Source: a virus
Lineage: Duplodnaviria > Heunggongvirae > Uroviricota > Caudoviricetes
IMG/VR virus record: IMGVR_UViG_2531839374_000016
Reading direction: 5' to 3' (one strand)
DNA length: 17,636 nucleotides
The translations under genes and the position numbers were made by a program. This document shows positions 11,601-12,162 of the stretch, in pieces. The notes under the pieces were generated by a model. That model was given only the letters and a program-made list of their open reading frames with translations. It was not told the DNA's origin and did not search any database. Each line of letters starts with the position of its first letter. Within the stretch, counting starts at the first letter, position 1.

Positions 11601-12162
11601 GGCATTTTCCCTGACACCTGGCGGACGGCTGACGGCGAAAAATGCCGATATCAGCGGTAACGTGAACGCGAACTCCGGGACGCTCAACAACGTCACGATT
11701 AATAAGAACTGTCGGGTTCTGGGAAAATTGTCCGCGAACCAGATTGAAGGCGATCTCGTTAAAACAGTGGGCAAACCTTTCCCACGGGACTCCCGGGCAC
11801 CGGAGAGGTGGCCATCAGGGACCATTACCGTCAGGGTTTATGACGATCAGCCGTTTGATCGGCAAATTGTTATTCCCGCGGTGGCGTTTCGCGGTGCTAA
11901 ACATGAGCGGAAGAATAACAATATTTATTCGTCATGCAGCCTGATAGTGAAGAAAAACGGTGCTGAAATTTATAACCGAACGACCCTGGATAATACGCTG
12001 ATATATACGGGTGTTATTGATATGCCTGCCGGTCACGGTCACATGACGCTGGAGTTTTCTGTATCGGCATGGCTGGTAAATGGCTGGTATCCCACAGCAA
12101 GTATCAGCGATTTGCTGGTTGTTGTGATGAAGAAAGCCACTGCAGGCATCACGATTAGCTGA
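8683..12162 (+). CDS. J: tail tip / host specificity protein J (central tail fibre)
   Basis: 1159 aa; N-terminus [34 protein letters not shown]... and most of the body match lambda gpJ (1132 aa). A central segment and the C-terminal ~150 aa diverge. GGAG and GAGG motifs precede the ATG. Confidence 0.95.

Follow-up and report, generated by a model that had tools for sequence, protein, structure and literature searches.

The J gene of the lambda-like prophage described here is a three-block mosaic, in which a lambda-like body is followed by a shaft and fibre of phage 21 type and by a receptor-binding end of a third type. The window, which is the whole stretch of 17,636 nucleotides analysed, represents the tail half of this prophage from Shigella flexneri. 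Despite its divergence from lambda, the C-terminus of J is a genuine gpJ receptor-binding domain, and among E. coli prophages its allele class is the most common one for this domain of J. Judging from the tested members of the gpJ family, its receptor was probably OmpC, likely of a non-K-12 allele type, rather than LamB.

J, the tail-tip attachment or central tail fibre protein, is encoded on the plus strand at 8683..12162 including the stop codon, as an intact open reading frame of 1159 amino acids. BLASTP revealed 81% identity over the full length to lambda gpJ (NC_001416). Six Pfam domains, FNIII-A_GpJ, Phage-tail_3, Ig_J, Ig_J_second, Phage_Tail_Tip and Ig_GpJ_C, were detected in the expected order and each far over its cutoff, and J possesses the full gpJ domain series, with the hub, two FNIII/Ig domains, the tail-tip fibre and the C-terminal Ig-like receptor-binding domain. 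The NCBI record WP_000515519.1, 'host specificity protein J [Shigella flexneri]', is identical to this protein, and the corresponding 90% cluster is dominated by Shigella, including S. flexneri, S. boydii, S. dysenteriae and S. sonnei, together with some E. coli. The order of the tail module, H-M-L-K-I-J-lom-stf-tfa according to the list of open reading frames and Pfam scans, places the gene in the genomic position of gpJ, and phages 21 and 640R1, as well as a homologous prophage annotated in E. coli VL46, show an identical gene order. The dN/dS of J versus 640R1 was 0.12-0.14 in all three blocks, with 0.12 in the receptor domain, which indicates that this domain has evolved under purifying selection equal to that on the remainder of J. 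Only four substitutions private to the window, T124N, L276R, G517C and K780R, were present at positions invariant in six other aligned J proteins. The possibility that J is a decayed pseudogene is ruled out by the intact reading frame, the low dN/dS and the small number of private substitutions.

Segment identities were obtained from a six-protein MAFFT alignment, and DNA breakpoints from sliding-window identity. The first block (aa 1-825, 8683..11157, plus strand) comprises the lambda-like hub and the two FNIII/Ig domains, with 91-98% amino acid identity to lambda gpJ for aa 1-800 and 76% for aa 801-825, and with 84-97% identity at the DNA level. The second block (aa 826-960, 11158..11562, plus strand), which includes the alpha-helical shaft and the upper central straight fibre, is of phage-21/640R1 type and shares 92-97% identity with phage 21, WGPS6 and 640R1. 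Its identity to lambda is 43% for aa 826-900, where J of the window has 28 extra residues, and 67% for aa 901-960. A conserved lower fibre segment (aa 961-1010, 11563..11712, plus strand) follows, which is common to all J types, with 88% identity to lambda and 86-92% across lambda, 434, phage 21, WGPS6 and 640R1. The fusion point of engineered gpJ chimeras, lambda aa 964 (PMC11338833), falls in this segment. The last block is the receptor-binding module (aa 1011-1159, 11713..12159, plus strand) of the '1A2/640R1/VT1-Sakai' allele class, in which Pfam Ig_GpJ_C covers aa 1030-1159 (11770-12159). Its identity to lambda in the MAFFT alignment is 39% for aa 1011-1033 and 45% for aa 1034-1159.

At the DNA level, identity to lambda collapses at about 11140-11500, with 21-28% at 11143-11322, goes back up to 87-89% at 11500-11680, and stays at 52-58% between about 11700 and the stop codon. 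For phage 21, identity is near 90-91% up to about 11740 and then 58-66%, and the final breakpoint was located at about 11700-11760. Identity that drops from about 95% to about 40% within a single open reading frame marks a mosaic junction and is not noise. An earlier note on this DNA had delimited a divergent region at 11700-12162 (aa 1007-1159), which corresponds to a real module boundary according to the sliding-window DNA identity, and the peptide quoted there is exactly as encoded. The divergence from lambda that it described for the last ~150 residues was confirmed at 39-45% identity by MAFFT (39% for the Pfam domain), and the high C-terminal identity to lambda J that it had named as contrary evidence was not found. 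Its statement that J tracks lambda through most of its length is correct for aa 1-800, at 91-98% identity, but overlooked the second divergent block at aa 826-960.

The names of the shaft and fibre domains are taken from the lambda gpJ cryo-EM paper, where the shaft is described to refold upon receptor binding. A shaft 28 residues longer than that of lambda might alter the length of the fibre or its triggering; nothing on the effect of a longer J shaft was found in the literature examined. Recombination of lambda J with the REL606 gene ECB_00512 was considered as well and set aside, since it involves J nt 1545-2796, outside the receptor domain.

The assignment of the C-terminus to the gpJ family is based on sequence and on predicted fold. 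Pfam PF12421 (Ig_GpJ_C) matched J aa 1030-1159 with E = 2.8e-36 and 125 bits versus a cutoff of 26.2, over profile positions 2-135 of 135, and a sequence search against the PDB retrieved A8 gpJ (E = 7e-124) and lambda gpJ. Prediction of the C-terminal structure, which the earlier note had proposed as a check, gave an AlphaFold2 monomer model of aa 1007-1159 with a pLDDT of 79.7 and a pTM of 0.74. The top four Foldseek matches of this model, 9wca, 9wcb, 8xck and 8xcj, had TM-scores of 0.79-0.83 and E = 1e-17 to 2e-14, and the next match was far weaker (E = 2.6e-4, TM-score 0.42). According to the PDB entries, 9wca is A8 gpJ in the closed form, 9wcb is 'A8 gpJ 713 with OmpC G17 from E. coli EDL933' in the open form, and 8xck and 8xcj are lambda gpJ with or without LamB. 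The Ig-like beta-sandwich of the J model is thus superposable on the solved gpJ receptor domains of A8 and lambda. The closeness to the lambda domain with conserved contact loops that would characterise a LamB-binding gpJ was not observed, as all four variable loops differ from lambda in sequence and two of them in length. The protein-database search returned mostly fragments or frameshifted pieces, without lambda or 434 types, and was used only as the modelling alignment. Many of the database proteins that match this end of J are frameshifted fragments, or are fused to unrelated phage proteins (Lom, terminase, portal), which reflects how often J is decayed or misassembled in E. coli prophages.

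The search of the J C-terminus with tblastn against 50,697 phage records revealed discrete identity classes. The class with 87-94% amino acid identity includes vB_EcoS-640R1, PPompW prophages, Stx2a_JNE phages, Stx1a_EH182, PhiR46_1 and PhiR49_2, and VT1-Sakai, 2G7b and PhiR47_1 share 89-92% DNA identity with the J C-terminus of the window. The phage 21 group forms a class at 63%, Stx1a, YYZ-2008 and 2H10 form another at 59-60%, and at about 40% there are two, the 434/WGPS6/Tritos group and, separately, lambda/HK630/O276. Over the domain proper (aa 1030-1159), identity to the window was 93% for 640R1, 91% for 1A2, 63% for phage 21, 60% for A8, 42% for 434 and 39% for lambda. The domain of the window aligns with 640R1 and 1A2 free of gaps and lies within the limit of the class (at least about 87% identity and no indels). 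At minimum thresholds of 80% for both identity and coverage of the 462 nt, DNA of this receptor class was found in 3350 out of 5426 complete E. coli genomes, and the median copy number per genome was two. It is also present in many Stx and O157 prophages. The sub-allele of the window, at a DNA identity of at least 99%, was detected in only 10 out of the 5426 complete E. coli genomes; among the matches listed, the genomes carrying it possess an annotated gpJ, and seven also possess the ipaHd prophage region of the window.

The receptor can be approached through the tested member of this class. In the work of Brödel et al. (Nature 2024; PMC11338833), J C-termini of natural prophages were fused to lambda gpJ at aa 964, which resulted in the OmpC-using chimeras A8 and 1A2. 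The GpJ 1A2 DNA (Supplementary file 1, PMC11338833) was translated from OCR-damaged text, in which frame slips were stitched and a few residues reconstructed. The sequence continues unbroken into a C-terminus of 640R1 type, with 98% identity to 640R1 and 91% to the window over the Pfam domain. According to the source data of PMC11338833, 1A2 delivered into K-12 with the OmpC of EDL933 at 98-99%. Into MG1655, which has LamB and K-12 OmpC, the figure was ~5%, where wild-type lambda reached 98%, and into a lamB ompC double mutant with K-12 OmpC it was 2%. A follow-up preprint (bioRxiv 10.1101/2025.02.28.640725) restates that 1A2 recognises EDL933 OmpC and not LamB. Membership in the class of 1A2 suggests that J of the window most likely bound a non-K-12-type OmpC. 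With ompC of MG1655 as query, K-12-type ompC (at least 99% DNA identity) was found in 938 out of the 5431 E. coli records with a match, the majority of alleles being 90-95% identical. The minority position of K-12-type ompC agrees with a common J class for which K-12 OmpC is not a receptor while many other alleles are.

Divergence from lambda is a poor guide to the receptor. Lambda uses LamB, and phage 21 natively uses LamB as well, with OmpC opened by one J mutation, while 434 and phi330 are OmpC users and A8 gpJ is an OmpC binder with a solved complex (9wcb). The receptor domains of lambda and phage 21, both on LamB, share 48% identity, so divergence from lambda alone does not imply a new receptor. 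The domains of phage 21 and A8 are 80% identical and use LamB and OmpC, respectively, which indicates that receptor choice is labile within the gpJ family. The earlier note had derived a receptor other than LamB from the divergence of the C-terminus. This receives support from the alignment to J proteins with known receptors that it had itself suggested, namely from the 91% match to the tested OmpC user 1A2, and not from divergence alone. The OmpC-using EHEC siphophage phi330 was considered as a receptor guide and rejected, as its closest relative, WGPS6, has a J end of 434 type that is 40% identical to that of the window. Direct receptor data on natural phages of the J class of the window were not found in the literature searched. 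The SNIPE paper covers the ManYZ dependence of the PhiR ECOR prophages but not their outer-membrane receptor, and the J coverage of the BASEL papers and of a 2026 receptor-prediction preprint consists of Drexlerviridae-type and lambda only.

In the model, the alternation of strands brings four loops together at one end of the beta-sandwich, and these four segments are exactly the ones varying between classes, in sequence and length; the loops at the opposite end (DDQPFD, KNG, DMPAG) are conserved in all classes. In the lambda gpJ structure paper, four bottom loops, L1-L4, enter the porin. On the basis of the monomer model and of conservation, the variable loops of J are putative receptor-contact loops matching L1-L4 of lambda. 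Putative contact loop 1 (aa 1032-1045, 11776..11817, plus strand as are the other three) lies between model strands and varies in sequence and length among J types. Putative contact hairpin 2 (aa 1074-1081, HERKNNNI, 11902..11925) is a hairpin tip in the model and has RKNNN where 1A2 has KEHTD; its counterpart in the phage 21, A8 and 434 types exceeds it by 5-7 residues. The third putative contact hairpin (aa 1099-1105, RTTLDNT, 11977..11997) contains T1101, which is Ala in 1A2, and putative contact loop 4 (aa 1129-1143, 12067..12111) contains G1134, which is Asn in 1A2 and 640R1. The lambda host-range sites 1077, 1104 and 1107, among the mutations reported to give OmpF use, align to aa 1105, 1131 and 1134 of the window. 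The window and 1A2 differ at 13 out of 153 positions (K1008E, P1032A, R1070S, R1076K, K1077E, N1078H, N1079T, N1080D, S1086R, K1090R, T1101A, T1109S and G1134N), and eight of these differences are in or beside the putative contact loops.

The reading that best accommodates these data is that J was assembled by modular recombination from a lambda-like body, a shaft and fibre of phage 21 type, and a receptor domain of the 1A2/VT1-Sakai class. Three copies of this domain would be located at the distal tail tip, as in lambda, with the four variable loops predicted to enter a trimeric porin at its extracellular opening. Porin binding would then lead to rearrangement of the fibre and to tail opening. 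The porin would most likely be OmpC of a non-K-12 allele type and not LamB. The domain could still bind LamB, with its divergence reflecting drift or arms-race variation on the same receptor. Among natural phages whose native receptor has been published, phage 21 is nearest at 63% identity; it uses LamB, which it shares with lambda at only 48% identity, and LamB of S. sonnei is a good lambda receptor according to the lambda gpJ structure paper. Nevertheless, the much closer 1A2 (91%) enters LamB-positive MG1655 poorly in comparison with lambda and is efficient only with the OmpC of EDL933, and we regard continued LamB binding as very unlikely.

Another reading keeps the class but changes the target, with the Shigella/EIEC sub-allele, by its RKNNN hairpin and G1134, possibly retargeted, either to a Shigella/EIEC OmpC allele in particular or to a different porin, for instance OmpF. 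The residues that differ from 1A2 and 640R1 are concentrated in the putative contact loops, and G1134 aligns with the lambda OmpF-innovation site 1107. The sub-allele is rare in E. coli, its 90% protein cluster is Shigella-dominated, and 1A2 itself distinguishes OmpC alleles. However, the dN/dS of the domain is the same as in the rest of J, with no signal of diversifying selection at the level of the whole domain, and an identity of 91-93% usually keeps the receptor. Retargeting of this kind is considered unlikely; if true, it would represent a natural fine-scale change of specificity within one J allele class.

The state of the prophage bears on the present use of J. Every tail gene, from Z/U through tfa, is open within the window. 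The left end is occupied by the IS110-like ISSso6 (1-639), which shares 99.5-100% identity with copies on chromosomes and plasmids of EIEC-like E. coli and adjoins the head-tail joining gene, at the place where related E. coli prophages have head genes; the prophage is probably disrupted or rearranged at this end, and J may no longer serve a viable phage in its host. J could thus be a functionless relic of a defective prophage, so that the receptor question would concern only its ancestor, and we give this an even chance. Besides the position of ISSso6, chromosomal ipaH genes of Shigella are typically found on degraded prophages, and the private substitutions L276R and G517C, at otherwise invariant positions, are non-conservative. 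On the other side, the tail genes are open and J is full length with few private changes. A relic would in any case concern the present use of J and not the nature of the domain or what it bound, for which OmpC of a non-K-12 type stays the preferred reading.

The tape-measure gene (3237-6308) encodes about 1013-1023 amino acids and is followed by M, L, K and I; the tape measure of lambda has 853 amino acids. In the SNIPE paper, tape-measure clades are linked to ManYZ dependence, and PhiR47.1 and PhiR55.1, which have a J of the allele class of the window, are independent of ManYZ. Between the J stop codon and lom, which lies directly after J in the tail module (12230-12829), a consensus scan revealed an intrinsic-terminator-like hairpin (12181..12210, plus strand) with an 8-bp stem of which five pairs are GC, followed by TTTTTATT. 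Phage 21 has an annotated terminator at the equivalent place. The side-tail-fibre gene (12851-14182) encodes 443 amino acids, and its product carries a prophage tail-fibre N-terminal domain. It overlaps by ~130 nt, as listed, with an open reading frame of DUF4376 tail-fibre assembly-like type, and the two lie in the stretch 12851-14636. The homologues of these two open reading frames in E. coli VL46 are longer, with 470 and 207 amino acids. The side fibre is a second host-range determinant besides J.

On the minus strand at 14816-16567, the window encodes an ipaH-type T3SS effector and E3 ligase of 583 amino acids, with an N-terminal LRR and a NEL E3 ubiquitin ligase domain. This gene is cargo at the end of the prophage, 3' of the tail-fibre genes and beside yecD/aspS, and is named ipaHd in homologous E. 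coli loci. In E. coli, the top matches come from EIEC-like genomes, where the annotation of the region reads gpJ ... ipaHd ... yecD, aspS.

Textbook lambdoid mosaicism includes modular swapping of the J C-terminus. J of the window is an ordinary case of modular host-range exchange, since the exact protein was already deposited and named and its allele class had already been studied. The importance outside annotation is small, as a close relative has been characterised and is in use in engineered delivery vectors. For annotation, a label as a probable OmpC-type tail tip is preferable to a LamB-type one. As a lesson of method, divergence from lambda does not predict the receptor, and the allele class should instead be matched to tested proteins. 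If targeting of Shigella/EIEC OmpC is wanted, the Shigella sub-allele is a candidate for gpJ chimera panels.

Among the known systems, 1A2 is the closest to J of the window, of the same class, with equal loop lengths and the same C-terminal strand. Its C-terminus was taken from a natural E. coli prophage J, and its body is that of lambda with a short helical shaft, whereas the shaft in the window is of phage 21 type. A8 gpJ has the same Pfam domain and fold (TM-score 0.79-0.81) at 60% identity, and binds a trimeric porin via distal loops. It belongs to the Stx1a/YYZ-2008 class, with hairpin 2 longer by 5 residues and loop 1 shorter by 4 residues than in the window, and unlike 1A2 it accepts K-12 OmpC. 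The J proteins of 434, phi330 and WGPS6 are OmpC binders of the same domain family, with about 40-42% identity to the domain of the window and different loop lengths. The use of OmpC by both the 434 type and the 1A2 type at this identity indicates that OmpC is used by clearly distinct alleles.

J of phage 21 (OL657228) has the same fold class as J of the window. It is 92-98% identical to J of the window through aa 1010 and 87% through aa 1033, but its receptor domain is only 63% identical. Lambda gpJ (NC_001416; PDB 8xck, 8xcj and 8iyk) shares the architecture and the fold of the receptor domain (TM-score 0.80-0.83). It differs in a helical shaft 28 residues shorter than that of the window and in a receptor domain of 39% identity that binds LamB. 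The trigger mechanism of J of the window is presumably the same as that of lambda.
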